Positions 10,004 through 51,405 are shown, counted from the whole stretch's first letter. The stretch: 60,402 nt of DNA, filler included, from Basidiobolus ranarum (GCA_040143965.1; 6 parts of 6 records of this genome joined end to end with filler, not necessarily neighbours in it); one strand, 5' to 3'. Numbers and translations are program-made. The notes: a model not told the origin generated them from the letters alone.

Positions 10004-10103
10004 NNNNNNNNNNNNNNNNNNNNNNNNNNNNNNNNNNNNNNNNNNNNTTAATTAATTAANNNNNNNNNNNNNNNNNNNNNNNNNNNNNNNNNNNNNNNNN
10101 NNN
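10004..10103. other. Artificial contig linker N44-TTAATTAATTAA-N44
   Basis: 100-bp linker with stops in all six frames; identical at all five gaps. Confidence 0.97.
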
Positions 10104-20099: not shown

Positions 20100-20199
20100 N
20101 NNNNNNNNNNNNNNNNNNNNNNNNNNNNNNNNNNNNNNNNNNNTTAATTAATTAANNNNNNNNNNNNNNNNNNNNNNNNNNNNNNNNNNNNNNNNNNNN
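20100..20199. other. Artificial contig linker
   Basis: N44-TTAATTAATTAA-N44. Confidence 0.97.
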
Positions 20200-30179: not shown

Positions 30180-30279
30180 NNNNNNNNNNNNNNNNNNNNN
30201 NNNNNNNNNNNNNNNNNNNNNNNTTAATTAATTAANNNNNNNNNNNNNNNNNNNNNNNNNNNNNNNNNNNNNNNNNNNN
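30180..30279. other. Artificial contig linker
   Basis: N44-TTAATTAATTAA-N44. Confidence 0.97.
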
Positions 30280-30498
30280 GTTAACATTTCATTCCTAATA
30301 TAATATTGTAAGATATACATGCGTCACATGCCAACATCCATTGCTTATGTTTGAGTTTAGATAATGAAACTATTAATAATTTCTTCAAAAATTAATGTTC
30401 CATAATTAAATCTTTGTAGTACTGTCCAAGAAGCAGAATATGTATATCTTTAGACAGTTGAAACAGTTAAAGGAAAACACCAATACAAAGAATTTCAA

Positions 30499-30808
30499 AT
30501 GGACTTCATCAACCGCTCCAATGATATACTGACCAAGCAAAATTTGTTCCAAGCTACCTGGCCAATGCTTCTTTCTTATTTTAGACCTGCAACTAACTTT
30601 TCTGTTTTCTAGTCCCAGGTTGCTAAGCCTGTTTGGTTGAAGGGTCCAAGAGACAAGGTTTTTGTTACTTCCTTCTTTGTATTTCTAGGAGCCGGCCTTG
30701 TTGGTTCATTGTATGGTACTTTTCAGTTAATTCGCGCATGTTCATACTACTCTGTTTTTTCTCTTCTCATGTACTAATATGCTCTCTCTATAGGGAGAGA
30801 AATATTAA
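30499..30808 (+). CDS. COX7: Cytochrome c oxidase subunit VII-like small protein (exons 30499-30552, 30613-30735, 30794-30808), with non-canonical donors
   Basis: MDFINRSNDILTKQNLFQ|SQVAKPVWLKGPRDKVFVTSFFVFLGAGLVGSLYGTFQLIR|GEKY*; resembles fungal Cox7 (QxxFQ...KPxW...PR, single TM helix). Branch sites ACTAAC/ACTAAT are present. Confidence 0.72.
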
Positions 30809-31137
30809 TCTCACTATGTTGTGATAGACTTCTTACATACAATACATAGAGATTAGCACTTGATTCCACTAACTGTTAGCCTTGAGAACATATTTCTATA
30901 CTGTATTTTCTTTGGCACGAGTATGCTATATACATTAACTGCATTGAATCCGATAATTTACTATATTGGTTTGGTTCTTTAAAAAACAATAAATTTTAGA
31001 TTTGATTGATCCAACTAAATGTGCAACTTTGATTAATATTAGTTTTGTAACCTCGTCATCTACTTAATATATTAGGGGCAAGTCACTATCTCAATATTGT
31101 TTGCTCTAGTCGAGGGTTTCTACCATAACACATATAT

Positions 31138-32328
31138 ATGTCAGAAGTAAGTTTTAAATCTTCGGGTTCTCAAGAACTTGAGGCCTACCTATTGCTCGCA
31201 AAATCTGCTAAAGGAGCAGCATGTGTTCAGCTAATTAAAGAAGTCCTTGCCGCACCCAATGTTTATGTTTTTTCAGAAGTACTCAAGATGCCCAATGTGT
31301 CTGCAGTAAGTATCTCTAGAAAGGAGAGAAGAATTAATCCTTCAATTTCAATATTTACACTAACTTTGCTATCATGTATCGTTTAGCTCTCAGAACAACC
31401 TGAAACAGCACAATATTTCTCGCTATTAAAACTTTTTTCGTACGGTACCTACAAAGATTACAAAGGTACTTTTCATTCTAGCAGAAATCTACCACAATCC
31501 ATTGTCACTTTCATTCTTTAATACTTCTTTACAAATAGAGCATGCATCCAATTTACCCGAGCTTACAGAACCTCAACTAAAGAAATTAAAGCTACTATCA
31601 CTCGTATCTCTAGCTGGTGAGAAACATGTAGGAAGCCACATTACTTCTTGCTAAATATCTCCACAAACTTTGATTTATGGAAAGCTCCCACCTTTTTGAT
31701 AATGTTCCTAACTTGAAATTTTATATAGGTTTTGGATTATAACGACTTGATACATTATCTTGACATTGGCAACGTTCGCGAACTTGAAGATCTGATAATC
31801 GATGCCATTTATAAAGGACTGATAAAGGCGAAATTAGACCAGCAGAAGAAACAGGTAGAGATTGAATACACGATGGGAAGAGATTTGCGCCCTGGACAAT
31901 TGGATCAAATGCTAGAGATTCTGACTTCTTGGTAAGTCGTTACCTTCTGTAATGTATCTCCCCTCTAAAGAGCGATCTTTAACTCAATCTTTATACATTA
32001 AGGTCATCCTCATCGTCGGACATACTTCGCTCCATTGATGATAAGATAGCTCAAATCAGAGATGCTTCCAAAGCCTCCATCCGAGCACAAGAAGAGCATG
32101 AAAATAAGGTAGAGCGTATTACGTCTGATATCAAGAATAGCAGTAGAAGCAATAAGGCCAGCGAAGCGCCGGACAATCGAATGGCCGTTGATCAATTCAA
32201 GAGTGCTGAGTATTCCGAGGAGATTTCTAGAAATCGTCTGAGCAAAAGGTTAATTCTTTAACATTGTCATGAAAATTAGTGATCCAATCTAACGATGACT
32301 TAGACGGTTTTTTGCAGGGCGAAGATAA
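31138..32328 (+). CDS. CSN7: COP9 signalosome subunit 7 (PCI domain), multi-exon
   Basis: [15 protein letters not shown]...[47 protein letters not shown]. Confidence 0.92.
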
Positions 32329-33620
32329 TGCACTCTTCAATTGAAAACATATCGTAGTTCTCGATGATCTTCATGGCTTCTATAGCCGAATCAGTAGTTT
32401 GGTGATGAATAAACCTTGATTTCTTGTTTAGCAAGATTTGATTATGATCTTGAATGCTCCCTATCTCACCGTTAATGTTGTGTGAGAGCGAAGCTCATAT
32501 AGCTTTACTAGGAACTATTACATGCAGGTTACGATATATTCGTACGGTCTCGTTCTGAACGTGGATCATTATTACTTGGTATTTAACGGCCATAAACGGG
32601 GAGAATACCATGTATCTAGAGTTCTATTCATATAGGAACTCAGTACGAATGCTACAGTATATCCTGATCACCGGATATCCCATAGTTCTGTCATTTTCAC
32701 AAGGTAGCTAGTGAGGACAGTAGGCAGAATGTGATAGTGATTTGCTTATCAGTTTTTGTCAGTAGTGGCGGGTAAGATAGTAAAAGAACATGTTGCCAAT
32801 GCTCATGAGTCTACGAGGTAAGTAACGACACTAAAAGTCATACCTGCAATCTGTACATACGTCTGTACACATTCAATCAAGTAAATGTATACTTTTTAAA
32901 AGTATACAAAATGCTAAATGAATCAGGACCCAATTCTGCCTAAACTTCGAACAATCTTTCTATTTCGGAAAATGGTGTTTAGGGTCTTTCTATTCAAAGT
33001 GAATGGTGAGCACTCTTGCATTGACTTTCTATGAATGTTTATGTAACATGTTTATTGACTAAATAACAATACTTTTGTATACATGACAAGTTTCCTGATC
33101 AAATATGCGCCTCCACGATCCAAAATTTTAGTGTAAGACGAAAAGTCTCCAAGTCAGTATTAACTCGAGTTCGTTTGATACCTATTTCAGAATTCTGTTA
33201 GCAATAACGTTTATGAGAGAGCGATACGAATAGAGATTGTAAGATAATTGCACATTACATGTGCACGTAGCTCAACAGATGAATCAATTTGTGCAATGTA
33301 GAAATGCAATTGAAGTCCAACTAAGTTCAGTTAAAGTATTGTACCTCATTAATGACTTATGCCCAATCGACATTACATATACTAATATAGGTACAAAGGT
33401 GACACTCAACAATGAGTATCAACCCAAACAATGAATATCAAATTTATCGGGAAATATGGGCTATTTTAGACCCCCCCCCCATCTTGGTGGGCGGCCACAA
33501 GTGAGAAAGATCCATATTGGAATTTTAGAAGCTGTTGGATTTTTTCCCTCTATACGTTGTTCGTATTATTTCTTTTCACTATTGTTTTACTTTCTAAGCT
33601 CTGGATAAGCTACAGCAAAA

Positions 33621-35437
33621 ATGGGGGCCGTCTTTTCCCTATTTAAATCTGTAAGCAGTCATCAATATTAAAGCTTCTATCAATGTAAGTTAGCTAACCC
33701 ATTATCTTTTAAGCGAACCGAGGATGATTATGAAAAGATATTAGCCGATTTGGACGATAAAATCCAAAAAGCTGAAATTCGTCTTTCAGATGTTAAAATT
33801 CGAGAGCGAAAGTTCGTTCTCATCTTCCTCATATATTCTCTCTTTGCGTATGGTCTCTATTTGGTCACCTACTTTGTTTATCTACGGAGTCCCTATGATG
33901 AATTCTATACCTGGTTTTGGAAGCTGATACCAGCTTTTCTGAGTCCACTATTGTATGTTGCTCAATATTACCAATGGTTTCTTTCTCGGTAGCTATGATA
34001 TTGACTTATTTTCTTAGTATATACTGTGTTTCCCGCGGAGTTTCATTCTGGTATAATAGAAAGCGTGTGAACGAAGGTAAGTTTCTCTTGGTCCAAGATG
34101 TATAAAACATCGCACTAATTCAATTTCTAGAAACCCATTTGGAAAACTTGAAGACTAAACAAAGACAAAAGGTATGAAAGTAATATTGAACTGAGAGCAA
34201 GTTAGTTTAATTTCTAATATATGTAATTATTTAGGTCGAAGAACTAAAGAAAAAAACCGCATACTACTCCACCAAAAACCTACTCGATCGTTATGATACG
34301 CCCAATAAGTTGAAGCTAGGCAAACCTGTTGTTATCAATTTCTGAATATTGCTATACTTTGTTCTTGTACTTATTAAGAATTTTAAAGCTTGAAGGCCTC
34401 AAAACTCCGATGCAAAACAACAACCTTGCTCGAGTTCAAGGAAAATTAGTCGCCCCCAACTCAGGTTTGTGACATCAATATCTGTTTATTTCCAACACTT
34501 AATTAAAACCGTAATTTTATCAGCTCCCGTTAATTCCCGAAACATCCCAGCTAAACCACAGGGCGTTAGAATCACTAATACTCCGAATCCCGCTCTTGGT
34601 CCACAAAACCCTCAACCTGAGCTTTCACAACTTCCTAAGATGGCTGTGGTTAACTCGCAACATGGTCCTGCTAATGGAATTACTCGTTAGTATTATTTTT
34701 GGACTCATTACACAGTCACTTTGTTTATTCTTTATAATCTATTATGTAGCTCCCCAAATACCATCTAATCAGAGCAATAACCAAAGTCGCAATTGGTACG
34801 ATAAAATCGTTGATGTTATCGTTGGCGAAGAGGAGCCAAACACCAAATTTGCCTTGATCTGTAAGAACTGTTTTGCACACAATGGATTGGCCTTACCAAA
34901 TGAAATTGATGATATCCGTACGTTAGCATACCCTATTGAACTTAAACATGTTTACTTGAAACGGTATTAACTAGTGATTTCACAGAGTATTATTGTCCCA
35001 AGTGTAATACCTTCAACCCTAGTCGTCGCCCTCAGCCTCAACCTAGTCAGACTCCTAAGAACAAAACTACGAAGCCCAAATTGCAACAAAATCGAATTAG
35101 CAACAAACAGGAGTCTGCTGGTACAATGACTCCTACGCCTGACGAAAAGCTTACGAAAGAGAATGAGAAGTCTCTTATTCCTGAAAACGATATAGTCTCA
35201 TCTAGTGAAGAAAATGTAGACGAGGCTCATGGATCCGAGGTTGAAGAGATTGAGAACTTGGAAGAGGAACTTCAATTAGCCCAGGTTGATGGATCGAGCA
35301 GTGATGATAAGCACAGTACAGCTAGTTCAGATGAAGCTGAAACTCCGGTAGAGTCAGTGCGTGAAATCATACTAAAGAGTAACCTTAAGGAGACTCCCCT
35401 AAGACAGAGAAACCAACAATCTAGAGGAAAGAACTAA
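33621..35437 (+). CDS. LNP1: ER junction-formation protein lunapark, multi-exon
   Basis: N-terminal MG myristoylation-type start, two TM helices, VEELKKKTAYYSTKNLLDRYD, WYDKIVDVIVG, zinc ribbon ALICKNCFAHNGLA...YYCPKCNTFN. Confidence 0.92.
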
Positions 35438-35947
35438 GCATTTCATCGATACTATGCCCCTCCTCGAGTTTTCTTCCTTACGTTAAACCCTAATCCCCTC
35501 TTGTAGTTGCGCGTGTGTTTAAATCTTTATGAATCTCAAACTCACATACAATTGAGCTACCTCGCCTGTTATAAACTTATTTTTGTTAGAATTCCATCCC
35601 TTCGTTATTATTTGCATCATTGAATCTATTCTGTCTCTGCCCTATTGATGCTATACTACATGTTACAATAAACCATTCTGCAACACTTGTTTCTATCAAG
35701 CATGTTTGGTTTACTGGATACAGGTTACTCATTCCAATATATCATAGTCATGAAAGTAACACAATAGTCGGGAATATCTAGAAATGAAACCGCATTATTC
35801 ACCATATAGGGAAAGAGTGAATTTCGATACTAGCTAGTCCAACCCTACAACGAGTAAATAATTGACAATCAACATTTTACATTCCATCATTTCTAGTTAT
35901 TTCATCCTTCTTTCAAAACTTTACCAAAGTCAAATTGTACTTCAAAG

Positions 35948-36270
35948 ATGGGTGGCTACTACGTGATTCCCGGTAAGAAGATTGCTTACGAATACGTAAG
36001 CTTTTCTATGTCCATTTTCTAGCGCTTATCTGATAAATTGAATACTTGTTCATTCAGATCTATATGTACTCGTATCTTTTTAATAGCTTGCTCTTGGTAT
36101 TTTGGGTAGTTTAGGTGTATTAGTTTAGGGAGCTAAAAAGAAAATAGCCGGTCGTCCTAAGGATTTGACCACTGAACCACCATTTAACGCTGCTTCCCCA
36201 GAGGAAGAAGCTTTCACCAAATAATACCTCGACAAGCACAAGAATGACGACACTACTTCAAATGAACATG
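35948..36270 (+). pseudogene. ATP19: ATP synthase subunit k (Atp19) pseudogene with two in-frame stops
   Basis: MGGYYVIPGKKIAYEY|LALGILGSLGVLV*GAKKK...PPFNAASPEEEAFTK*YLDKH; intact intron 35996-36086; TAG at 36126 and TAA at 36222. Confidence 0.8.
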
Positions 36271-37501
36271 ATAAGTTTATCCTTTTTCTAAGTGTTTACG
36301 CTTTCTGTAAATAACCATACAACGCGTTCAATCTACCTTCTTGCGGCGAATCTCACTACAGCATAGAATTTAGCTACTTTCAAACATTAATATCTCTATT
36401 ATTTAGCATATACAGTAAATATTCCAAATTACAGAAATATCAGAAAACATTTTGAGAAATACTCATATCGAACAAGATATAAATCGATTTTCAATCAATC
36501 TTCCTATTTGGCAAAGAAACAACATACATTTCTTTCCCAGTTAACAACGTTGAAATTTGGATTCTTCAGCCCTTCTAGAGAAGACGGAACTTATCAAACA
36601 AGTCAATAGAAAAATGGCTTTTTGAGGATAAGAATATTCGTAGAGGTGCGGCAAAGGTTTCAAGCGTTCATCTTGACGGATTGTGGGCTATTGTTAGTGG
36701 TGAAAGTGGCTTCTGGAATGGATTAGGCTACTAATGCTATGCATTGCATAGTTCTCTATGTACTCTGTATACAAGGTTTGGAGTATGCAAGTAACTTTTG
36801 GGCTGAGTTCTAGAAGTTGGAGCTGGCCAATATCTATTTTTAGATGGTAATCGAATTTGGGTGTGCAGATCTCATATGTTTATGATTCATAGGACCTAAT
36901 TTAATTAGTGATAGTATTTCGATACCATAACACAGTGTAATTTTTTCGGTGGCGTAAACAGACGTATCTCTTCCATTACCCATTTCTGATCGACTCTGTT
37001 GAGTTTAATATATGCAGAATAACGCATTGTAAATCGATGCCGTTGGTTTCAATCAAAGGTAAAGACCATTTCCTAACTTCAAAATCATAACAAATGGGAT
37101 TTACATAAAAAGGTCAATTTACTGGAGTATATAACATTCCCTATCTGCCTCCACTCAAGCTTTGACTCGTTTCAAATGTATTGTATGCAGTTTCTCTTCG
37201 AACAAAATAAATCACTATTTTACAGAATTATGTGTTTCGTTTCATTCCTAACTTCAATAGGCAAGATCGAGCTAAACTTTGTTGTGGTTTCTGCAAGTTT
37301 AATGAGGTTGTTTGTCAAGCATACTTTCGTCCGAATTGAATGGAATAAAAGAGAGATCACTTCTCGTTAGAATACTAAGATTTCTTCATCACACCGCAAA
37401 CTCATCAATACCACATATATCTTCATCGCACATTATTATTCTATTATATTCCCATTCTTGTGGTGCAACCTCGTGTGTCATAGGGATCTCCTTTTACTCA
37501 G

Positions 37502-37870
37502 ATGTCTTTCTTCTCAGTGTTTGGCGAGTGTTATCCAGTTGAGCAGATGGAGGGGCTTGGTATGGAAAGTGAAGAGAGACGACCACGTATGCGAAAACTA
37601 CGTAAGCTCAGTTTACCTGATCTAGAAACGACAAGAGATCAATGGAATGTAAAGGCCAGAGCGACTCGTAGGAAATTAAGTGAATTGCTTCCACACCGAC
37701 CTATCCCAGAAGGCAAGGAGGAGGGGTTTGTTGTCGATTATTCAGATAACCTTGAGAATATGAGAGTCAAACTGCGAGAGACTCCATTTGACAATTTACT
37801 CGAGCCTAGTAAACACAAGGAAGAGATAGCCACTGTGAAATTCACCTTAACCCCTTCTTTGGCTCGTTGA
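37502..37870 (+). CDS. Small hypothetical protein (122 aa), paralog of 38750-39109
   Basis: Intronless ORF sharing DYSxxLExxRxKLRxxxFD and T[VI][KR]FTLTP with the convergent ORF. Confidence 0.75.
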   Translation: MSFFSVFGECYPVEQMEGLGMESEERRPRMRKLRKLSLPDLETTRDQWNVKARATRRKLSELLPHRPIPEGKEEGFVVDYSDNLENMRVKLRETPFDNLLEPSKHKEEIATVKFTLTPSLAR

Positions 37871-38749
37871 TAAAGTATCTCTCTAAAAACCATATCGAGA
37901 TCTACCATAATTGGGATGGATTGTTTTTCTAACTTGGGTAGTGGTTACTCCTAGAGTTTCTGAGCTCCAATTTTATCCTTCCAATCTTTCTGTAACTGGA
38001 AAAGCATTCTAATTTCAATATTTTGTATTGGCCATCTTTTTTCGTGTGAATACTGACCTCTTTTGATAACATATGTACAATCTTGAAAATAACACCCAAC
38101 CTTCTATCACAGTTATCTCGTTTCATTTTAAATATTCCACTCTCCTTAAAAAACTTACATCCCCATATAACCGCAAACATAATTCTATACTCATTTCTAT
38201 TTCAAGGCTATTCGTTGAATAGTTAATCTGTATTAGCCATAACTTTCCATTTACAAGGAAACTTCTCAAAAAAAGAGTAAAATTCGAAAGTCTAAATAAA
38301 AATTGAATATGTACTTTTGGTATTGCATTGCTTGTTGCTCAAAGATAGTATACGGGAGTGATGCTTGGTGCGCGTCAGTTAATTCAAGATTAATCCTGCA
38401 AATTTATTTTGTGAATAACGATCTTACTGCCTTGCCTCTACGGATTATCCATGATAGCAGTTGAATGGCACAGCCAGATGAAGAGAGAATCTGACTTAAA
38501 TGTGTATCTGGAATAGAGGCTTGCGCGAGACGGTGTACGGATTCGTGTGGTTGACTGGAGTCCAGGAATTGTATGATGTAAATATATAAGAGAATGGCCA
38601 GCATCGGACATAGAGTCACAGAGACAATTAAAGCAAAACAAAAGAGGGCCCTGATATTCGCTATGGACTACTCAACGATAGCCAGCAAGTCAACAGAAAT
38701 CACCAATATGTACATTCTCTGTTGATTTGAGTCTCCGCAGCTGAGACAT

Positions 38750-39109
38750 CTAATTGCGAATATTGTTTGGTGTGAGAGTGAATCGGATAGTTTTTACTCT
38801 GGTGCTTTCTATGTCATTTGTAAACCCTAAATCGATGGCTTCATCAAAGTTCACTTTTCTGAGCTTTGCTCGTACACTCTCCAAATCGTTCGAGTAGTCA
38901 AGAATATTGCTCGTATCTAAACAAACAGTAGGTCTTCGATGGACTTTGATGAAAAATGAGGTTTTGACGCGAGCGGAATTTTGACAATTCTCCGGCCTCC
39001 CGTCCAGCAATGGCACCATGGATGGCTTTCTGATTGTTTCTCGAGAATTTGAACAGCGCTCAAGTCTCTCAACTGTGCAACAGCTACTAAAAAATGATAA
39101 GATCCACAT
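38750..39109 (-). CDS. Small hypothetical protein (119 aa), paralog of 37502-37870
   Basis: Same shared motifs; protein-level conservation of both ORFs supports real coding. Confidence 0.75.
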   Translation of the reverse strand: MWILSFFSSCCTVERLERCSNSRETIRKPSMVPLLDGRPENCQNSARVKTSFFIKVHRRPTVCLDTSNILDYSNDLESVRAKLRKVNFDEAIDLGFTNDIESTRVKTIRFTLTPNNIRN

Positions 39110-40074
39110 GACTTTCTCTAACAGTGGACGTCGAGATACGCTACAGTCAAATCGGGAGTCCCATACGAAACGTCAATGCCAAGCTTGAGGTTATATAAGG
39201 TTGTTCGAATAATGTGTCAGCTGATGCCAATGTTCCTCAAGTGGTCGCCCAATAGTAAGACATACACTTGCTTCAATGTCATAGTTGAGTTATTTACTTT
39301 CTCGCCCAACTGAGAACTGTACAATGTCTTTAAATTATCCGGTAATATTTATGACATGTTGTTTAAGACACACTATCTCCGACCATTTCTATTTCAAGAC
39401 GCATTCCACTCGAGGGTTCATGAGCCTGATCATAGACTTACCGTGTCTTGAGCACCTCCGTCTAATGGACTCGATTTGTTTACGACTCCCTCCAGCTATG
39501 AGCATGAAAAATACCTCTCTCTAGCTAATCAAAGAGTTACTCAGTAGATGTCGCTTAGACTTGACCAGTGAGAACCAACATTCGATGGTTTACAAAACAC
39601 TTTGTTCTGTTATCGTGGACTGTCACTCCATTAGATCTTATGTGCAGCCGAAACACGCAGGAGGATCATTTTAGCAGATAGAACCAGATCCGAAGTAAAA
39701 GACCACGTCACAGATTTTAGTTGCATAGTTGATTGATTAGCCAAGTATTTACGGCGATCAGCTATCTCGATATTAGATTGGGCTCGATACTCGAGCATAT
39801 GGATGTCTAAGATGCACATGAAATATTCGATCGAATGAAAAGCTTGAGGTCAGAAACCCACTTGGCTTCCTGGACGTTTAACAAAGCGCAGAATAAAAAT
39901 AGTCATTCAAGGCAAATAATGCGAAAGCCAAATTCTGTCTCAGTCATTTAGCATGGTATTCTCAAACAATATACCTCAAATATGAGTGATTACATGACAC
40001 ATACTTGATATATATGCATGTACTTGGAAGGACCACGTATTCACAGTCAATTTTCAAACTCTAATATCTGGTTT

Positions 40075-40257
40075 TACAGTGTTTTAGCCTAAAATGAGAC
40101 AATTTAAAAAAAATTAGACGCTTCATAAAATATATGGGACGATTGCAAAAAAACTTTGAGACGAGTGAATGTAAAACAAATAAGCAATGTAATTTTTTTT
40201 GTAGACGAAGCGCATTAATGTTCAAAGACTTACACTGTATCTTGAATTAGTGTAACG
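40075..40257. mobile_element. DNA-transposon terminus (TA|CAGTGTTTTAGCCTAAAATGAGAC...) related to the Fanzor element end, truncated by contig end
   Basis: 20/23 identity to the reverse complement of 40844-40866; TA flank at 40075-40076; iterated AAATTAGAC-like subterminal repeats. Confidence 0.75.
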
Positions 40258-40357
40258 NNNNNNNNNNNNNNNNNNNNNNNNNNNNNNNNNNNNNNNNNNN
40301 NTTAATTAATTAANNNNNNNNNNNNNNNNNNNNNNNNNNNNNNNNNNNNNNNNNNNN
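40258..40357. other. Artificial contig linker
   Basis: N44-TTAATTAATTAA-N44. Confidence 0.97.
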
Positions 40358-40715
40358 CATCAATATGCTTCACCAGATGCCAACTGTAAAATGCCATGGT
40401 CTTTTAAGGTACTGTCCGAGATGATACAAAAAGAGAGAAAAGAAAATGAAAGCTAATATTTTTTCGTCCAATAGGTGCACAAACCAAAATTGTTTGAAGA
40501 CCACGCCAACCAGTAGCATTAGACGACTTTGGAACCGAGACCTTGCTGCAGTACTTAATTTCCGACATATCTTAGCTTCGCTTAGAGAAAAAGGTACCCG
40601 TCCTGACCGATTTATGCCCCAAAAAGCAGGTGAAAGAAAAGGCAAGCAAAAGGAAAGCCAAGAATCAAAAAGAATCAAACACTCTTCCTCAGTTATCGCT
40701 GCAGGACACCCATAG
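40358..40715 (+). CDS. Fanzor (eukaryotic TnpB-like RuvC nuclease) C-terminal fragment; exons <40358-40408 and 40475-40715
   Basis: Spliced peptide ...PTVKCHGLLR|CTNQNCLKTTPTSSIRRLWNRDLAAVLNFRHILASLREKGTRPDRFMP: zinc-finger half followed by the RuvC-III NRDxxAxxN motif (Asp codon 40539-40541) typical of TnpB/Fanzor1. GT-AG intron 40409-40474 with GCTAAT branch site; basic NLS-like tail. Confidence 0.82.
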
Positions 40716-40868
40716 TACAGGTAAGACTGTAGGTAAGATTTTAAATTTATTAATGTTGATCGTTCATCCCGGTCATTCGTCTGAATGGTTTTCTATGATT
40801 GTCTAATTTGAATTTCAGCTTGTCTAATTATTTATTGCAATCATCTAATTTTAGGTTAAAACCCTGTA
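40716..40868 (+). ncRNA. Candidate Fanzor omega-RNA scaffold region and right transposon end (TIR ends 40866, TA 40867-40868)
   Basis: 151 nt between the Fanzor stop and the element end, with hairpins TACAG-GTAAGA-CTGTA and GGTCATTC-GTCT-GAATGGTT and GTCTAATT repeats. The position matches where omega-RNAs are encoded in known Fanzor loci; RNA status is inferred. Confidence 0.5.
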
Positions 40869-41183
40869 GGGCCATTATATACATACATACATATATACTA
40901 GATTCAAGTTAACTGAACGTGTCCTAGCATCATCACCTATGGTTCAACAGATCATTGAGCGAATAGATTTCAATGGTGGCTGATTAAGTGGCCAAGTTAA
41001 GATCTCAATATTTTATTATCATTTCATATGTTAGAAACCATGCTTTTATTTGCCGTGACGTTTCTCACAGTAGCCAATAATTGAAACGAATATGGATGCA
41101 GGTGATATCGCGACTAGCATTTGATGTTTGAAATTCAACCATTATATAGAACTATATCCCCTTTTTGAAACTTCACTTTGAAT

Positions 41184-43710
41184 ATGAGTAACAATACACC
41201 AACGACACAAGAAGAGCTCCCCTCCGACGATAGAAATATCCTTATTAAGAATGCTGAAGAAGACTTTGAAAAGTTAATAATAGTGGATTCACCTCCACTC
41301 AAGAATATTCAAGAAAATGTGGATACACTGGTAAGCGAGACACCAAACGAATCCCAAGGTTCTATTGATCAGTCCATTACATTGTTACAAACTAATTCTG
41401 GTCAAGTGGAGCCTTTGGTTGAAGAACAAACCAATCCAGATACCACGAACGAAAATTTTGACTCCATGAAAGAAAAGAATCTTGAGGAGCAACTTCCTTT
41501 CCTTCAAAATAGTGGAATTCAAACAATTTCCCATGAAAACAATATACAAAATCAAGGATCAAACATACCATCTCAAACTTATGACAAAGTAACAGAAGAA
41601 GAACGCGAACTTTCAGAAAACTTGATAAGAAATGAAGCAATTCCAAGTAATTACCTGGAGATCTCCAACTTGGAGCAACAAGTATTACCTGTAGATCCAA
41701 CTCATGATCAAAAAGTTCAAGATCCAGTCAATGAAGTAAACGAATCACGTGGAAATAATACTTACCATGAGCAATATACACCAGTCGAGACTGCATTTAC
41801 CGAAGGTGACTTCAAGCCTAAAGAAACAGAAAATATTTCAAATCATCCTTTCACTGGTGGATTTCAGACGGCACCGCTGGAGTACAATCTCGCCAATAAT
41901 GATGAGAAACCAGCTGAAATAGTCGAATCTAACTCTGGCATAGTGGACTCTAGTAATGCTTCCCCTAGATTACTTGACAAGGGAAAAGGCAAAGAGGTGA
42001 TTAGTCCAGAAGAAAATTCTTCACTTGACTATGCTAGTCATGACAATCATAACAATCCTATGGGCAATAGTGACCTAGAATATCAACTGGATAATGAATT
42101 CGTGGATGCTATACCCATTGAATCACAAATATCGCCTACTTCTCCACACAACAATACCGAAATTGCTGCTGGGGTTGATCCTTTAGATATGCGTTATGAT
42201 TCTCAAGAACACCCAAATGATAATTTATCTACGGAGGTATCCAACTTGCCTGCTGACCCATTCCCAGTTCCAAGCGTTCTTGAAGTGATCCCTTCACATG
42301 TAGCAAGTGATCTTACTGGGTTCACAGACACAAAAGCTACCGATACTCCCTTACCAACTCAACAGCAAGCTATTCAAAGTGTGGGAACCACAGTAGCGAA
42401 AACAGAATATCAAATGAAGAGAGTTGAATGGATGCCTTTGAATTCCACGAATCCGCTGAAACTTTCCATAATCACACAAAATGAAAATGGACCGTGTCCT
42501 TTGCTAGCCTTATGTAACGTCCTCTTACTTCGTGGAGACATCAAAATACAACCGGCTGACAGGCCAGTGGTAGATGACGAGTACTTGACCAGTTTATTAG
42601 GGGAATATCTTCTTGACTTACACTCCACAGAATCTGAAGATATGTCAAACTTTAACAACGCCTTGGCGGTAATTCCTCTATTGCAAAGGGGTTTGGATGT
42701 GAATGTCCGATTCGACAACATTCGTGGATTCGAGAACACACCCGAATTATCTATGTTTGAGGCATTCAAGGTCGATCTGATTCATGGGTGGATTGTTGAC
42801 CCTGAAGAGGATTGGAACACATATAAAATTCTCACGGAGAAATGTGTCAATTACAACACAGCAGTTGATTTAGTGGTCAAAGGAGACGAAGCCGAGAAAG
42901 ATACCAATTTGAGCATCGACGAAAAAGATGCAATCGTTCATGAAGGTATTAACAATTTTTTTCATTTATCTTGCACCATCTAAGTTAGCTTCCCATTATC
43001 ATTACAGCCTTGGTTGTCCGACAGTTTTTGGAGAATACCGCTACCCAGCTTACCTATCATGGCCTATTGGCTATTTCTACTACGTTGCCACAAAATCACC
43101 TTTCGGTCTTATTCCGTAACAATCATGTAATCGATGGGTTTTGGTAGTTATCGATTGGTTACAACAATAACTAAATTTCTCTAGTTTTCCACTCTTTATA
43201 AACGAGCAGATGGAGAGCTATATACATTAGTAACTGACGCGGGATTCTTGGATTCTCCAAACGCGGGATGGGAGAGGCTGAGAGATATTGATCAGATAGA
43301 TTCGGAATTTGTGACTGGCACATTCCAGAAGATTGGGCCTAGTGGTGATTCTACGACTCAATCAGAGACTATAATAAATGAAGATGACTATGCCGATTTA
43401 ACTGAGCAGGAGCGTATGGATCAAGAGTGAGTAATAACCATATTTTTAGTCCATTCCTGACATGTTCTTAACTATGATATTGTGGCAATACAGTCTAGCA
43501 CTTGCCTTGAATTTGCAGCAACAAGAGGAAGATGGGAAGAAACGCGAACAAGCCCAAATCGCCAACCAGAAGCTACAGCAGCATAATGCAAGCGGGCCTG
43601 GTAAAACTCAAGAGCGTCCTGAAGCATCGGAAGCACATGAGCAAGCAACTTCAGTAGCCTCATCATCGATGAATCCAAAGAAAAAGAAAGACAACTGTAT
43701 GATTTGTTAG
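41184..43710 (+). CDS. MINDY-family K48 deubiquitinase (MINDY-1/2, Miy1-like), 4 exons
   Basis: Catalytic QNENGPCPLLA, GLDVNVRF, HGWIVDP, QLTYHGL, FRNNH|FSTL, LVTDAGF; MIU-like SLALALNLQQQE; CaaX terminus KKKKDNCMIC. Confidence 0.93.
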
Positions 43711-44868
43711 CTCTTTCTCTCTTGGGATTACGTTTCCTATTGGATAATAAGGTTTATTTCACTCTTTTTCTCTCATGGTATCATGCACAGTTATTTTATT
43801 CATACTCTTATGTGTCTCAACTCACTCTATGACAATTAGCTTGTTGAGTGTCTATTCATATTCTTTTCGTACTCGGAAATAAAGCAAATCTTTTCATGAT
43901 ATTCCTACGTGAACACAGTGCCGTAACTTAAAGTGAAGGCGGCGCCTCGTTTGGAAGTTATTTGGATGCAGCTATAGATCCATGGACAGAAAATCCAGTA
44001 GCTTTGATGTGGCTATTTGTTTTTATGTGATATTTAGGCATACATTGTATTGATTCGACGTATACCATGTGAATATTTAATGATGCTTATGGTACATTTT
44101 AATACAATCCTAAGACCGATCTCAGCCACAGAATGGATATCCTCGAGGTTGCTGGCATTGTGCTGCCTTCAAGTTTGTTTTCTATTATGTAGGTACACGC
44201 ACTGACACTTTGGGATTTCGATGTCTACGAAGTTTTCCAAATCATGTTTGTCATTCATGAATGCATAAATTGTTACATCGAAGGGGATGAAAGATCGTGT
44301 AGTTGATACCTGTGACGCTATTCCTGATATCACGTGATGTTCCATCATTCCTACGATGAAGTCGTGAATTTAGTTGTTTCGTAACCGGGGAATATATTAC
44401 ATAATAATCAATAAAACCCCGAATTTTTAAAAAATCATTGAAGGGTTTTCTAGGTAGAGAGCGTAATTTTGGCTTGCTCTAATTTTTCCTTCATATCATA
44501 CACGTACACTTCCTAACTTCTCTATAGTGAAAACTGCACTTGGCCAAATTCATAAAACGTTATTCCATTGTCCAAATACATTGTTCCATCTACCCATCTA
44601 CAGTATCAGTTCGGTAATTTTTTACGCCTCATCTTCCCCTTTTTTTTACCATCCGTAATATATTATTTGGTTTAACTTCAGTTACATTTGAAGTATTGAA
44701 CCGTCCTTTTTTCTTACTCAGAGGCTGTTATTCTTCTACTAAAAACCTGCGAGGTTTATTTTTGGAGGAAGGAAATCTCCACAATACCTTTTATCGGTTC
44801 CAGCTTAATAACTGTTTACAGAGTACATAACTACATAACATTCGTTGAAATCGAGAATATTTTAAAAA

Positions 44869-47534
44869 ATGTACGAGGATGACATGACGGCTTCTTTTTT
44901 TCAGTCTAGTTCGGAATACACTTCTCCTTTACAGTCATCTTTTTTCTCAACTACCTCGTTGGACCCAACCTTTGGTGACTTGGCGAACCCTTGGGGACCT
45001 CAAGGTGGAGGTTCAATTAATGTAGAAACTGTTCTTCGTAAGTGAAAAGTTGCGAAGTGGCATCTTATTCTCGTTGAATTAATTTTTCACTCCAAATAAT
45101 TATATAGATGGCATAAGGCTGCCGCTGATTTACGAAACTGCCTTTAGCATGGCCGCTCCAATAGATAATAAGATTACTCTGGAGTCTTTAAATAAAATAC
45201 TAAGTGTTAGTGGGCTGTCTTCTGCCATGGTGGAAAAGGTGCAAATACATTGGATTTTATTCATATTACTTTCACATGTAATACTTACAGTATTGCTTTT
45301 ACTTTAGATATATACTGTTGCACTTCCATTTGATCGTAGCAGCATTGATCTAAATGCGTTTAATGTAGTACTTACATTGGTAGCACTCAGTCAAAAAAAT
45401 ATGGGTAAGGAAGAAGAATGGTTTATTTTGTTTTCCTGTTAACGCCTAAAACTCTTTACCTAAACATGTTTAAAACAATAGATGTGTCACTAGAAAACAT
45501 CATTTCTCACAAACAAGGTAAGCTCTTGACTTGAAAAGCAACTCTGTCCGTGAAATTAAACCAAGCTAATTAATATACTTTTATGATATATTTAGACCTA
45601 CCAGTGCCGTCCTTACCCAATCTCTCAAATATTGATTTCACCAAGAGGCCAGTACACCCAAGAAACCCTTCTAGTTCGCAAATCAAACCTGAGCCCTCTG
45701 CTAGTGAGTCAGATCCTTGGCGAGCTAACGGTGATTCCTCCGCTGTTGCACCGGTGAATTCAATTATACCGGATAAACCTTTAAACTTGTTCCAATCGGA
45801 CGGACCACCCTCGTCATCTAGTCGACTTTCAACTATCTCTAGTAACCTAGAGACATATCAATTGTTTGCTGATAATGATTTAATTTCGATAAAAATCTCT
45901 CCACAGAGAGGGGGTATGATATTTAAGCATATCAATTACGTAGTGGAATCTAAGGTGAGTATCGACAGTCCTTCTACTTGTATTCTTATTTTCAATTAAA
46001 GCCTGTATGTTATTGATGCTGTCTTGGTTTGATCTAGCAACGTCTATCAAGCGTGGTAAGAAGGTATAGCGATTTCTGGTGGCTTTTGGAAGTCTTAACC
46101 AGAAGGTACCCATCTCGTATGCTGCCTACATTGCCACCCAAGAGAATTGGAGGTAAGCTAAGAAAATATCAAGGATGACTTCTAGTAACGATCCAAATAA
46201 CGACTGATTGTTCAGGGGACGAAGCATTTCTCGAACGAAGAAGAAAAGGATTAGCAAGATTTATCAATTTCATTGCACGTCACCCAACCTTAAAAAATGA
46301 TGATGTGGTTATAGTTTTTCTAACTGAGCCATCGGTAACTAATCTTATTTATTGAAAGATCCATCGATTCTTGACTGAACTAACACGAATGTTCGTTCCT
46401 TTGAAGGACATGGGAGGCTATCGAAGATTACATGAAATCAACATTGACGAAGAGTTCAAAAAGGTAGAAGTGACCGATCGAATGAAAACCGGTGTACCTC
46501 ATGATCTCGCGGAGAGATTAAACAAGCTTCGTGAGAGATTGGATGCCTCTGCCGAGTACTATGGTAACCAGTGCACTCTAATGGAGCGTATAACTAAACG
46601 ACAAGAAGGTACGCAATGTGCATTATCAACCCTTGGAGCTATGTACTCATTTGAAATATTCTAGGTTCTGCTGAGGACATGCTTCGGTACAGTAAAGCCT
46701 TGACGTAAGTTACAATAACAACTTGTATTTGCTTGGCTGGCACTTAAACCACACCTTGTTATCTCAATCAGGTCCTTGGCAGGAAATGAGAGCGAATGCC
46801 ATGATGCTGACTGCTACAAGTGTCCACAAATTGCTCATGGATTTGATGTGGTGGCTGGTTGTTTCAAAAAAGTGGGCACCCTTATTAAAGATGAGGTAGG
46901 GACAACTATGATGTGGTAGCTTTAGCCGATCGAAACTGATCGACATTTTTGTTTTCAGGTTGAATCTTCGATCAACGGTGTCGTGGAAAATCTAAGACGT
47001 CAAAAGGAAATTATCGTTGCTTTCAAGGTAGATATTTGAACCATCCCTTCGAGTTGAAATGTATCGAATGGCCCATTTTAAATACGCTTTCATTCTAGGA
47101 ACTTCTTGATCGTAAAGACAAAATCGTGTATGGAGAGACGGATTCTCTTGTTAGTCGCATCAAGTCCAACCAGGAGAAGTTAAATAGTCTTCGAGATTCT
47201 GGCGGAGTTGAGAAAGAAATCCAGAGACTCATCACCATCATCGAACAGGTACCTGTGCTTCTAATGTGGTGGAAAGTATCGTATTCTAATGCTTAAACTT
47301 GCTTTAACATAGGATCAGAAAGAGATCGTAAACTCTAGAAATCATGATATCTTTATCCAATACTCTCTTTGGTGCGAGTTACAGTTTTATCATCAAAACG
47401 CTGCTTTTGTCACTCTATTGTATCAGCATTATGTTAGTGATCAGATTAAGTTTGCTACCGGATTAACACAGGCATGGAAAGATTTATCAATCACCGTAAA
47501 TGACCTACCTATGGATATTAGTCGGTTTTCTTGA
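44869..47534 (+). CDS. MVP1: Sorting nexin Mvp1/SNX8 (PX-BAR), multi-exon
   Basis: [66 protein letters not shown]-terminal [12 protein letters not shown] motif; C-terminal BAR-like helices; stop 47532-47534. Confidence 0.9.
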
Positions 47535-50148
47535 ATAATATTACTCTATTATCACTCGTCTACCACTTAGTTACCTTCTATATACAAGATAAACCCTCAC
47601 CTTCTTCGCTTCTATTTTTTGTTATTTACCGTACACTATTCATATATTTATACATGCCTACACACATGACATCATACTACTTGCTTCATCGATATAAAGC
47701 CATCTGTATCATCTGACTTTCCACTATCCAAGTAAGATCACAGCATTCATGTGATGATATGGGCTTTAAGCTAGGTATAGACTTCTTCCTAGCATCCCAA
47801 CCATCTTTGTACCAAGGCAGATTTGACGAGAATTGGTCCACGAGTCCAGATTCAGGAAGAATTTTACTGATTTGACCAGCCGGATATTCTTTTAAGATGA
47901 TCACCTTTATTGGCAATATATAACTCACAGGAAATGCAAGCTAAGATATCTCTATTTGTAATACATCCGATATCCTTTAAGAATCTCTATTAAACAGAAT
48001 ACAGTGAAATGCAAAGGGTTTCCAAACAATATCCAGTGAATACAGTAGACATGGCTCAAGTGACACAATAGTTTGCTTCTCAATTGTGGATTACTTGGAA
48101 AATCATTTTTCAAGCATACAGTGGCAAGATACATCGGTACTAGATGAGTGATTAGTAGGGGGGAACATGCACTCGTCCAAACCAATGGTCTTCCTGTGAC
48201 TCACATAGATGACTGTTATTCGATTCCGTACACTTAGTTACCTTAGTTACTTTATTTGTACTGGTTGTCCAATTTAGTGATTTATTACATACTACAAGCA
48301 GTGAAAGAATTGATGGATTTGGGAGTTGACTGCATCAATACCAACCGAACCAAACCTTAGAAATCCATGGAATGTTTCGCCACATACTAATACTATCGGA
48401 TGATTCGTAAGGACTTGTACTAGATGGGGCTTGATTTCGTTGGAAATGCATTGGACTTTGAGCAATTAGGGCCACATCTAATAAGTATTCCCAGTACATT
48501 TTCTACATGCGAGAGTGGCCAATGGCAACTGATGTACATGCTACAAGCCAATCAAGTGGAATAGACACGCGTTGTTATGATAATCATGAATTCGCTTTTT
48601 TTTATCCCATTCAAGCATACCATAGCAGTCAGCCATCGAGAAAGCACTTGAATCTCTGGGGAAAGGAGGTAGATTCAATCCATCGCTTCTTAGTTCAATC
48701 CACCAGAGACACAATAATGCGTTTTTGGACGTATTTTCTAATACTAATAGGTGACAGACCCAGATACAGATCAGGAATTAGTCAGTTATGGATCGACACA
48801 TGCATTTATTTGGTTCATTGTTCCATAGATAATTCCAAGTGTTGAACCTGATTTTTGATTTGGACCCTCTTATTCTCTCATTTGACCACCCTTTTATGAA
48901 TATTGTGACACTTGTTAGCTTAGATACAAAGCTTATCTGTAGATAAAGCAATATCCTCTCAAAAGGCAACATGATATCGCTGATCGGTCTGTCAGTTGAA
49001 ATGCTCATTTTTATGCCTTGGATAGAGCATAATTCTAGACAGAAAGGGCACCATGTTCAGTGATTTCCTTATCTTTCCCCTGGCTATGTCGGAGGGCTTC
49101 TCACTTGGAGGCTAGGATTAATCTAGGATTTCAAATGATATGATAATATATACATACCTTTGAGCTTCGATGAGAATTGTGTGACAAGATCAGCCACACG
49201 TAAAGATGCTATGTTTACTAGGCAATTGGGTGCCAATTTACTAAAACAGTTATCGCAAATCAAACAATGAACCTAAATTGAGTAAGCATAAGATTGCACC
49301 TACCGATTATCGATAAATCTCATCAAAATTCCCTAAATAGACAGACTGATAACTATATCCACATGACTGAAGATGGCAATATTTCGTAAGGTTGACAGTG
49401 AGATCTCTCTTCCAGTAAGCATCTGTGTGGAATACTTTTTAACAAAACACTGGTGCTAGAATGGGGCATTCTTGTAATGATTTGTACTAATGGAATAAGG
49501 AAAAACGATGGCCAAATTCCAAACACCTAAATAAGCGTTTATTTAGCTATAAATATGTAGTGCAAATCTGCAATTTTATTTCCTTTTTAGGTATGCTTCT
49601 GTGGTTGCAAATCACTCTTTTACACAGTTAGCTTGGATAGCAAAGGGAATTCTACTATTCTATTTTGTAGTCAGTCGATGCTCTCCCACTAGAAATTCAG
49701 ATGTGCATAGGTATATGGCGTTCAAAACATCACCAGCACTGATGGCCCTTCAAAGGCTTCAAGGACTAGAACAGCCCTACTCTAGCCCAACAAGCACCGA
49801 TTGACTGGATAGAGTAAAGCTGATCCATTTGTTGTTCTACTTGACTCAGTGATCGTACTGCTCTACCTGTAGCCTTATCGGTACAAGTAAGGCGGGGTGT
49901 GAAACCCCTTTTCCAATCACAAATCACTTGTAGTTGAAATTTCGCAATTGATTCTAGATTTTTCAGTTGAGTAAATTTGCGAACGAGTTACATATTCATA
50001 AAAATATATAAGAACATTGAATTCTTTGAGGAGCAGAGAAATCCACTACAGTTTCTTGCGAGATATAATCCCGCTCTCTTTACATCCTTTTATCTTGGCC
50101 ATAGATTGATGTCCCTCACTGGACAATGCTAATTTTGAGTACGTTAAC

Positions 50149-50333
50149 ATGTCTGAATCACCCAAAGAGCGCAAAGCCTCCGCAAATGGCACCACATTTT
50201 TCGACATACTCTGTAATGAAGATCCAGAAGGCGTGTTAGAAAAGGAAAATCAGGAGCCACCAGATGAGATGCTCAACAGCCGTAAAAAAAGTGCTTGCAT
50301 AAAGCAACTCTATCTCAACCGTAAATTACTTCA
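50149..50333 (+). CDS. Unidentified ORF start truncated by contig end (possibly repeat-encoded)
   Basis: ATG-initiated open frame running into the linker; no recognisable motif. Confidence 0.25.
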
Positions 50334-50433
50334 NNNNNNNNNNNNNNNNNNNNNNNNNNNNNNNNNNNNNNNNNNNNTTAATTAATTAANNNNNNNNNNN
50401 NNNNNNNNNNNNNNNNNNNNNNNNNNNNNNNNN
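50334..50433. other. Artificial contig linker
   Basis: N44-TTAATTAATTAA-N44. Confidence 0.97.
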
Positions 50434-50587
50434 TAATTAATAAATAAGAACATATACCCACTCAATTATATTCTAACTTGGCTTATTTATTTATTGACTT
50501 TGTTTAAATTGATAAATAAATATTACACCTTCTGGTGTTTATCATCCCCCCCTAACCCTATGTTGAATAAAGATTATTTATCCAACA
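50434..50587 (-). mobile_element. Start of a family-B-like LTR inserted into a Copia gag
   Basis: Minus strand TGTTGGATAAATAATCTTTATTCAACA matches TGTTGAATAATTAATCTTTATTCAACA at 28996. Confidence 0.6.
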
Positions 50588-51058
50588 GAAAGTTTCCCAT
50601 AGACTATCAAAGCATTTTCTTTATTCCTTTGGTTGGATCCTAATTTGCCTAAATTTTCATCCAGAAGTCTGCCAAATACATAATTTAAGGTCAAATTTTC
50701 AGATTTTGATTCTAGAGCTATTACTGGGCTCTGAAACTTTTGTGGCAAACTACTCAGCACTGTAACCATGATTTCTTGATTAGTAGTAGGTACTCCAATG
50801 CATTCCATTTCATCCACTAAAATAGTGACTCTAATGATTAATGATTTAATGTCTTCTCCTGGCTTTATCTTTAAGTTAAAGAATTGTCTTCTTAGAAACA
50901 TCTTGTTTGCAGCAGGACTTGCTTGGTAGGTGTCTTCTAAGGCTCTCCATACCTTCTTGGCAGTTTCAGTTCTAGAACATTGAATTGGCAAATTTTCTTT
51001 AACATTAAGACAACTTGTTTTAAAGGCACTTTGTTCCTTTTTAACCTGGAGTAAAACT
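50588..51058 (-). mobile_element. Copia gag (UBN2-like) remnant
   Basis: TAKKVWRALEDTYQ...NKMFLRRQFFNLK...VLSSLPQKFQ...GRLLDE; homologous to the gag at 29561-30000. Confidence 0.85.
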
Positions 51059-51405
51059 TGTTAAAGTATTTGGGAGCCTGTTGGAAGTGGTTTGGAGAAT
51101 TAGAGGAATTGTTGGTTTTCACTTATCAATTTATTGAGTAGAAAGTTGACATTTATAATTTTGTCAAGATGTAAACAAACTAACATGTATAATGTGTTAA
51201 GGAAGGTCCCAGGAACATGTGTGCAAAGTGTGGGGCTTCTATCACAAGTTTGAAAAATCTATATATCTGAGATCTTCTAAGTAGGAAAAATGTTCTAAGT
51301 AAATTTCAACTGAGAACAATGGATAATATCTTAGTGAATTATAAGAAAACTAAGGACTAAGCTATATATGACTATATAGGTGTTTAGCCAAAGCTAATCT
51401 CAACA
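51059..51405 (-). mobile_element. Copia family A LTR (no TSD)
   Basis: Full-length TG...CA copy similar to 28256-28602; flanks AAACT/CTAAG do not match. Confidence 0.88.

Follow-up and report, generated by a model that had tools for sequence, protein, structure and literature searches.

A candidate omega-RNA at the right end of a TA-flanked Fanzor1 transposon in Basidiobolus ranarum

The stretch of Basidiobolus ranarum DNA analysed here (GCA_040143965.1; 60,402 nt, referred to as the window) contains the 3' end of a Fanzor1 gene, followed on the same strand by the right end of a transposon that is flanked by TA. An original prediction had placed a candidate omega-RNA scaffold, together with a guide derived from the flanking DNA, at 40716..40890, immediately downstream of the Fanzor stop codon. 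On balance, we consider it probable that the flagged stretch represents the last 151 nt of a TA-flanked Fanzor1 transposon and that, together with the preceding 30 nt, it encodes an omega-RNA. Support for this proposal comes from the homology to Fanzor1, the transposon terminus, the repeats at the element end and a match to stem-loop 1 of the published Fz1 omega-RNAs. The window is composed of six pieces of 10003, 9996, 9980, 9978, 9976 and 9969 nt, strictly descending in size, and the Fanzor right end is located 358 nt into piece 5 (40358-50333). No contiguity is known between this piece and the DNA before 40258, and sequence read across any of the spacers does not correspond to contiguous genome.

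The part of the Fanzor1 gene present on the contig comprises the last 1.3 exons. The end of the penultimate exon (40359..40408, +), the 5' part of which is cut by the contig start at 40358, encodes ...TVKCHGLL and the first two bases of an Arg codon, and is followed by a predicted spliceosomal intron of 66 nt (GTACTG...AATAG; 40409..40474, +) that was placed by its GT/AG ends. Removal of the intron gives ...TVKCHGLL-R-CTNQNCLKTTPTSSIRRLWNRDLAAVLNFRHIL..., within which the spliced KCHGLLRCTNQNC is contiguous in intron-less relatives and matches Parasitella P0009, among others. The last exon (40475..40715, +) encodes the second half of a zinc finger, the RuvC-III motif RLWNRDLAAVLNF, with its Asp codon at 40539-41, and a Lys-rich tail that ends with the stop codon TAG at 40713-40715. 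When compared with proteins, this exon has its top match in B. ranarum K7432_011095 (92% identity, E 9.7e-23; 19 hits from 83 candidates), and the same search (40475-40715) also returns Coemansia proteins of 600-790 aa as well as one Parasitella protein. Two more B. ranarum Fanzor1 fragments share 76-81% identity, and 106 cluster representatives are matched at E<=1e-3. Among the solved structures, the exon aligns with PpFz1 (9cf0) at E 2.4e-7, whereas the similarity to SpuFz1 (8gkh) is weak (E 0.0045 over 47 residues). The C-terminal zinc finger and, after it, the RuvC-III RD motif (KCHGLLRCTNQNC...RLWNRDLAAVLNF) align to PpFz1, SpuFz1 and the 106 representatives. Judged by these alignments, the upstream open reading frame (ORF) is the C-terminus of a Fanzor1 from a diverged Basidiobolus family with multiple copies, and the original assignment of this ORF to Fanzor is borne out for the last 1.3 exons.

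Downstream of the stop codon, 151 nt (40716-40866) lead to a terminus ...TTTTAGGTTAAAACCCTG, which is followed by TA at 40867-68. The letters and coordinates reported in the original prediction for this interval, for two hairpins within it and for three repeats spaced about 21 bp apart were confirmed. The proposed terminus at 40866, with its CAG end and TA flank, also gained support, as an inverted counterpart is present in the preceding contig. Comparison of 40358-41100 with the window by blastn yields a single inverted match (40822-40868 / 40119-40075; 47 nt, 79%, E 2.5e-4), which joins the right terminal inverted repeat (40822..40866, +; ending ...AAAACCCTG; identified by blastn, consensus match and alignment) with the TA and left terminal inverted repeat CAGTGTTTTAGCC... 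(40075..40121, +; left terminus 40077). The element ends, with a slash marking the terminus, read TA/CAGTGTTTTAGCC... on the left (40075) and ...GGTTAAAACCCTG/TA on the right (40868); they are identical at 22 of the 26 terminal bases and at 37 of 47 overall, and the flanks beyond the TA do not align between the two ends. Moreover, TACAGTGTTTTAGCCTAAAAT (40075-95, + strand) and TACAGGGTTTTAACCTAAAAT (40848-68, - strand) are the sole two matches in the window to the IUPAC consensus of the outer 21 nt (0 of 100 shuffles). This inverted repeat supports 40866 as the terminus at the element-family level. TA adjoins both termini, which sit on different contigs. Past the outer 47 nt, the similarity between the arms is weak (score 28 versus 18.5 on average for shuffles, 131 of 2000 of which score as well), and a long inverted repeat spanning the whole arms was rejected as not significant beyond that point. 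Neither blastn nor tblastn revealed further copies of the element in the window.

The original prediction had further assigned the host element to the Tc1/mariner/IS630 type. The terminal inverted repeats are in line with this, whereas no domain of a DD(E/D) transposase of Tc1/mariner (IS630) was found in Pfam screens that covered 26 of the 31 window ORFs of at least 110 aa and 23 ORFs of at least 70 aa in piece 4; the five ORFs omitted from the first screen were 34515-34967, scanned separately, 41169-42980, scanned separately in essentially the same extent, and antisense ORFs at 40373, 41395 and 42413. Since the interior of the element is missing, the transposase negative says little. The Tc1/mariner assignment would therefore be based only on the TA flanks and on the CAG(T)G terminus, which we take to resemble Tc1 ends. 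A similar organization is described for Fanzor1-only Mariner-type elements such as PUl-4 (Bao and Jurka 2013, PMC3627910), where Fanzor1 is located inside inverted repeats with TA flanks; as for the PUl-4 elements, no transposase gene is seen nearby in Basidiobolus, although here the Mariner type would follow from TA and CAG(T)G alone.

Within the right end, four repeats of the form [AG]TCT[ACG]A[AT]T, putative transposase-binding sites, occupy 40779..40850 (+; starts at 40779, 40801, 40822 and 40843). GTCTAATT is found at 40801 and 40822 and ATCTAATT at 40843, with a spacing of 21 bp, and a looser fourth copy, GTCTGAAT, at 40779. The 3' ends of the repeats are 80, 58, 37 and 16 nt away from the right terminus, and mirrored copies are located 16 and 35 nt from the left terminus. 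In the left arm, AGAC cores are seen at 40097, 40116, 40159, 40203 and 40226. The motif, whose background frequency is 0.37 per kb per strand, occurs four times in the last 167 nt. Across the window, the exact octamer shows no enrichment (5 versus 3.6 expected, with 27 of 100 shuffles reaching 5), and Tandem Repeats Finder reports no array at the repeat site; despite the lack of enrichment in the window as a whole, the local arrangement of the repeats is far from chance. Because they occur in mirror image at both ends, the subterminal repeats are probably transposase-binding sites. This part of the original prediction stands, but the additional role that it envisaged for the repeats, as an RNA scaffold, receives no support from the 151 nt, in which we observe no folding signal.

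The supplementary tables for SpuFz1 and PpFz1 contain five Spizellomyces and two Parasitella Fz1 omega-RNAs (PMC10432273, PMC11423790), and all seven tabulated RNAs share a leader ending U-C-C, a 7-bp stem and a loop TTGTCG or TTATCG. According to these reports, stem-loop 1 always comprises seven base pairs and, in the three solved Fz1 complexes, is bound to the RuvC/TNB surface (PMC11423790), and in SpuFz1 the leader as well as bases of the stem-loop 1 loop contact the protein (PMC10432273). A candidate for the same stem-loop 1 is present in Basidiobolus at 40686..40706 (+), where TCCTCAG and CTG(C)AGGA form 7 bp with a bulged C at 40702 and enclose the loop TTATCG. The hairpin is preceded by a UCU leader at 40683-85 and overlies the codons ...S-S-V-I-A-A-G, the last codons of Fanzor1. 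Compared by eye, its 7 bp with one bulge, its TTATCG loop and its UCU leader correspond to those of the Fz1 stem-loop 1. The segment highlighted by the original prediction begins only at 40716, and stem-loop 1 was therefore missed.

When TTRTCG loops with a closing stem of at least 7 pairs are sought, with G-U pairs and one bulge allowed, this hairpin is the only one of its kind, representing one of 45 TTRTCG sites on both strands of the 60-kb window. Block shuffles produce 0.47 such hairpins per window, which translates into a chance of ~1 in 1000 of finding one within ~200 nt past the RD motif on the right strand. The pair probability of stem-loop 1 is 0.80-0.94 in a 211-nt RNA. By eye, both sides of the stem differ from each of the Parasitella RNAs at 3 of 7 pairs, and from the RNA of Spizellomyces locus 20 at 5 of 7 pairs, with pairing kept in every case. 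The window and both Parasitella RNAs share the identical 10-mer AGTTATCGCT, which encompasses the stem-loop 1 loop and its closing pairs. The PpFz1 protein ends ~6 residues after the aligned region, and AGTTATCGCT is consequently probably non-coding there, which argues for its conservation at the RNA rather than the protein level. Among the B. ranarum paralogues, P0125 retains the tail ...SSVIAVGYQ, and P0020 reads ...PQLSL and then ends. As far as can be deduced from these proteins, both would be compatible with retained nucleotides, the sole difference being a C-to-T change at the bulged base, and P0020 would read the stretch in another frame.

The SpuFz1 scaffold is described as comprising two stems plus a linker, with the base of stem 2 formed by pairing of U35-C40 with G70-A75, the final bases of the inverted repeat together with its TA (PMC10432273). 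The distal portion of stem 2 (C40-G70) lacks order and can be dispensed with, and the guide starts from U76; five SpuFz1 loci are listed as identical through ...CACTA and variable in the following 14-15 nt, with CATA as the target-adjacent motif (TAM) (PMC10432273). In PpFz1, by the account given in PMC11423790, a second hairpin of four pairs contains CAGGTAAG and is followed by 4 nt and the guide, and the TAM is ATN. The Basidiobolus sequence offers two candidates for a stem 2 ahead of the guide, namely a long-range stem (40716-21/40863-68) and a local hairpin (40716-31), either of which would be separated from stem-loop 1 by the putative linker CACCCATAG (40707..40715, +), which spans 9 nt including the stop codon and was assigned by its position relative to the 6-nt linker of SpuFz1. 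The long-range candidate arises from the complementarity of UACAGG (40716-21) to CCUGUA (40863-68), a helix that is present in the minimum-free-energy structure of 40680-40886 and has the same topology as the stem 2 base of SpuFz1; CCTGTA (40863..40868, +), the 3' strand of the proposed stem 2 base, includes the flanking TA at 40867-68. The local candidate, TACAG-GTAAGA-CTGTA (40716..40731, +), would be a PpFz1-like stem-loop 2 and contains CAGGTAAG, which is common to both published Parasitella omega-RNAs. With one additional base (40716-21), the 5' arm of this hairpin is alternatively the 5' strand of the long-range stem.

Both hairpins of the original prediction are present, TACAG/CTGTA at 40716-20 / 40727-31 and GGTCATTC/GAATGGTT at 40771-78 / 40783-90, the latter with five Watson-Crick and three G-U pairs. 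The region also includes an imperfect 12-nt tandem duplication (40716-40739), in which TACAGGTAAGAC is followed by TGTAGGTAAGAT, 9 of 12 positions being identical, and both copies contain AG/GTAAG, which resembles the 5' splice-site consensus.

We propose that the omega-RNA would start near 40683 with the UCU leader and continue into stem-loop 1 (40686-40706) over the last codons, followed by the 9-nt linker with the stop codon and the base of stem 2, where UACAGG (40716-21) would pair with CCUGUA (40863-68). The enclosed 141 nt would consist of the subterminal repeats, which would act in transposase binding at the DNA level and constitute a dispensable distal stem 2 in the RNA. The guide would be host sequence from 40869 onwards (GGGCCATT..., ~15 nt), predicted by analogy with SpuFz1 as GGGCCATTATATACAT (40869..40884, +; ~15 nt) in the host DNA upstream of a MINDY gene. 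With the target TA at the end of the TAM, Fanzor would be directed to the empty site. What we infer in this arrangement is its transcription, the long-range stem 2, where the guide starts and the TAM. An (ATAC)5 microsatellite (40879-40898) starts 11 nt beyond the TA flank (40867-68) and overlaps the end of the predicted guide.

The candidate RNA is encoded on the same strand as the Fanzor1 ORF, at its 3' end, and reaches the right end of the transposon. Thus, the location of an omega-RNA at the right end is retained from the original prediction, although the only part of the scaffold that can be matched to published RNAs, stem-loop 1 (40686-40706), lies upstream of 40716..40890. Similarly, a flank-derived guide agrees with the rule published for SpuFz1, but its start shifts from 40867 to 40869, as the scaffold would include the terminal TA by the SpuFz1 precedent.

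As reported by Saito et al. 2023 (PMC10432273; 8gkh), SpuFz1/Spu-1 likewise has a Fanzor1 ORF followed by the right-end RNA, bounded by inverted repeats. Shared with SpuFz1 are also the U-C-C/U leader, the 7-bp stem-loop 1 with its TTRTCG loop (exactly TTATCG at locus 20) and a short linker, as well as, in the arrangement proposed here, a stem 2 base that uses the end of the inverted repeat including the TA and a guide directly after the TA. In contrast to Basidiobolus, the tabulated SpuFz1 scaffold comprises 75 nt, is wholly downstream of the stop codon and is associated with 30-nt repeats, whereas the Basidiobolus stem-loop 1 overlaps the last codons and ~141 nt of repeats would be accommodated within the would-be stem 2, giving a scaffold of ~185 nt. 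The likeness to PpFz1, as documented in Xu et al. 2024 (PMC11423790; 9cf0), extends to the closest solved protein, the identical AGTTATCGCT, a 7-bp stem with compensatory differences and the location of CAGGTAAG within a small second hairpin at similar spacing. Unlike in PpFz1, where the guide begins 4 nt after the second hairpin, the terminal inverted repeat of Basidiobolus is found 130 nt further on.

Several results weigh against the proposed omega-RNA. Folding of the region is no better than chance, with z-scores of -0.06 for 40736-40866 (84 of 200 shuffles as good), -0.25 for 40680-40886 (81 of 200) and -0.29 for 40600-40886 (67 of 200); for the shorter interval 40680-40735, the fold is also no better than chance (z -1.01, 26 of 200). 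Rfam returns three matches with E 3.6-4.5, far under the gathering scores and none of them at the flagged site. The long-range stem comprises only 6 bp, and since an inner inverted copy of the terminal 8-mer is present in the left arm as well (TACAGTGT/ACACTGTA), the complementarity could be a feature of the DNA ends. A scaffold of ~185 nt would exceed all three solved Fz1 RNAs (75-150 nt), and the comparison with the published omega-RNAs was made by eye only. The left arm, which may come from a different copy, is located on another contig. With the contig beginning at 40358, the integrity of the gene can be followed only over its last 1.3 exons, and Pfam finds nothing significant in the 96-aa Fanzor ORF, the sole match being DMTF1_N with E 0.063, under the cut-off. 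In Pfam searches of six relatives, one shows a weak Cas12f1-like TNB match (E 0.0031, below the cut-off) and the other five none. Furthermore, with an alignment of 11 C-terminal sequences, 0 relatives were confirmed among 219 metagenome, 13 viral and 27 genome contig stretches. A metagenome scan for the two shared RNA motifs gave 110 matches at 96 loci, 17 of them with a stem of at least 6 bp; these 96 loci were rejected as chance matches, as none has a tblastn hit at E<=1e-3 to seven Fanzor1 proteins.

The absence of a structure signal in 40736-40866 would also be expected if the omega-RNA were short and of the PpFz1 type, a reading that we regard as unlikely. In that case, a scaffold of ~50 nt would consist of the leader, stem-loop 1, the linker, the hairpin 40716-31 and 4 nt, and a guide of ~20 nt would start from 40736 (AGATTTTAAATTT...) inside the element, leaving the remaining 130 nt purely as transposon end. 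The nuclease would then target sequence of its own element family, not the flank of the insertion site. PpFz1, the nearest solved relative, has such an organization, with a 49-nt scaffold, a 4-bp stem-loop 2, 4 nt and the guide in the published account, and the spacing between AGTTATCGCT and CAGGTAAG is 17 nt in the window versus 14 nt in PpFz1. The local hairpin 40716-31 does form when the short RNA is folded alone, but in the longer, 211-nt RNA its pair probability is 0.26-0.30 versus 0.54-0.63 for the long-range helix. In the tabulated RNAs of Parasitella loci 58 and 59, the stems of stem-loop 1 differ and yet the 'guides' that follow the scaffold are identical at 18 of 22 positions (by eye), suggesting that the post-scaffold sequence may be conserved element DNA there; however, according to the same source, the RNAs of Parasitella were determined from yeast expression rather than in their native host. 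A short scaffold would depart from the rule of a flank-derived guide shown for SpuFz1, and the window offers no further copy of 40736-40755 that could serve as a target. We prefer a SpuFz1-like long scaffold over a PpFz1-like short one, by analogy, because it agrees with the terminus of the inverted repeat and with the only RNA data from a native host in the literature read.

The same lack of a folding signal in the flagged region might indicate a fossil end, in which the copy has decayed or suffered an internal deletion, nothing functional is made and the hairpins are leftovers. This, too, we judge improbable. It would be consistent with the presence of only the last 1.3 exons on the contig and with the state of the B. 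ranarum paralogues, which are 76-92% identical and include P0001, where Tyr replaces a zinc-finger Cys and ~90 residues of the RuvC-II region are absent. Against this, the open frame, the RD motif, the GT/AG intron, stem-loop 1 and the terminal repeat are all intact at the locus, and a contig break within the gene is an outcome to be expected of an assembler faced with several near-identical, hence young, copies.

A different partition of the DNA ends follows from the inner copies of the terminus. The left arm (40075-40243) carries ACACTGTA (40236-43), an inner inverted copy of the terminal 8-mer TACAGTGT (40075), and mirrors the TACAGG/CCTGTA of the right arm. Each arm being bounded in this way, 40716-40868 could be a separate miniature element, TA/CAGG...CCTG/TA, that happens to lie beside the Fanzor gene, with 40075-40243 as an inverted second copy. 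We consider this very improbable: the inner repeats are merely 6-8 nt long, the weak similarity of the arms beyond the outer 47 nt is reached by 131 of 2000 shuffles, no solo copy occurs within the window, and CAGGTAAG at the inner edge is common to the Parasitella omega-RNAs, which argues for membership of the segment in the Fanzor module.

Spacers of the form N44-TTAATTAATTAA-N44 occur five times, at 10004-10103, 20100-20199, 30180-30279, 40258-40357 and 50334-50433, and the pieces between them are complete contigs from a fragmented assembly, arranged in order of length. This follows from their descending sizes and from a copia-type gag ORF (Retrotran_gag_2; 29453-30178, +; Pfam E 1e-29) that runs off the end of piece 3 and has no continuation in piece 4. 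A second gag ORF of this type (Retrotran_gag_2; 50581-51060, -; Pfam E 3e-27) is located within piece 6, ~150 nt from its beginning. Of the 12 contig ends, four lie within two transposon families, the copia gag (pieces 3 and 6) and the Fanzor element (pieces 4 and 5), which is consistent with an assembly that breaks at repeats. The N-terminus of Fanzor was sought ahead of the spacer and rejected, as none of 23 ORFs of at least 70 aa in 30280-40257 has a TnpB/Fanzor domain and the pieces are separate contigs.

Elsewhere in the window, Pfam identifies ordinary eukaryotic genes, including eIF4G (MIF4G/MA3; 2-2695), a CLC chloride channel (5002-5922), Ric8/synembryn (7446-8349), a mitochondrial carrier (14070-14522), CSN7 (31129-31383) and lunapark (34515-34967), and ~38% G+C together with short introns fits a fungal nuclear genome. 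A MINDY deubiquitinase domain (E 5.6e-47) is encoded in a long ORF (41169-42980, +) that starts ~310 nt past the end of the element, which places the insertion in the upstream region of the MINDY deubiquitinase gene.

Fanzor was not found together with Basidiobolus in the literature searched, nor among the top 10 of 277 papers returned by a broader search, and no Basidiobolus entry is contained in the eight readable supplementary files of Saito et al. 2023 (PMC10432273). The arrangement of a Fanzor1 gene, a right-end omega-RNA, inverted repeats and TA flanks is already known, and the Basidiobolus locus is a further example. Fanzor omega-RNAs have, to our knowledge, been mapped experimentally in few organisms only. 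The locus would extend the conserved stem-loop 1, with its 7 bp and TTATCG loop, from chytrid and mucoralean fungi to Basidiobolus, and stem-loop 1 would serve in practice as a landmark when fungal genomes are searched for Fanzor1 guide modules. With the conserved RNA core and the transposon terminus lying 130 nt apart, the locus raises the question of where the guide starts in long, repeat-rich ends. A more speculative thought, to which we attach little weight, is that the guide module and the transposase-binding end are nested in Basidiobolus, either with ~140 nt of repeats inside stem 2 or with a short scaffold and a fixed internal guide. If true, the nested long scaffold would be more than twice the length of that of SpuFz1. 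With an internal fixed guide, Fanzor would instead recognise its own transposon family, for example Fanzor-less relatives, rather than the empty site, and the near-identical 'guides' of Parasitella hint that such an internal-guide logic might hold across the Fanzor1 elements of zygomycetes.

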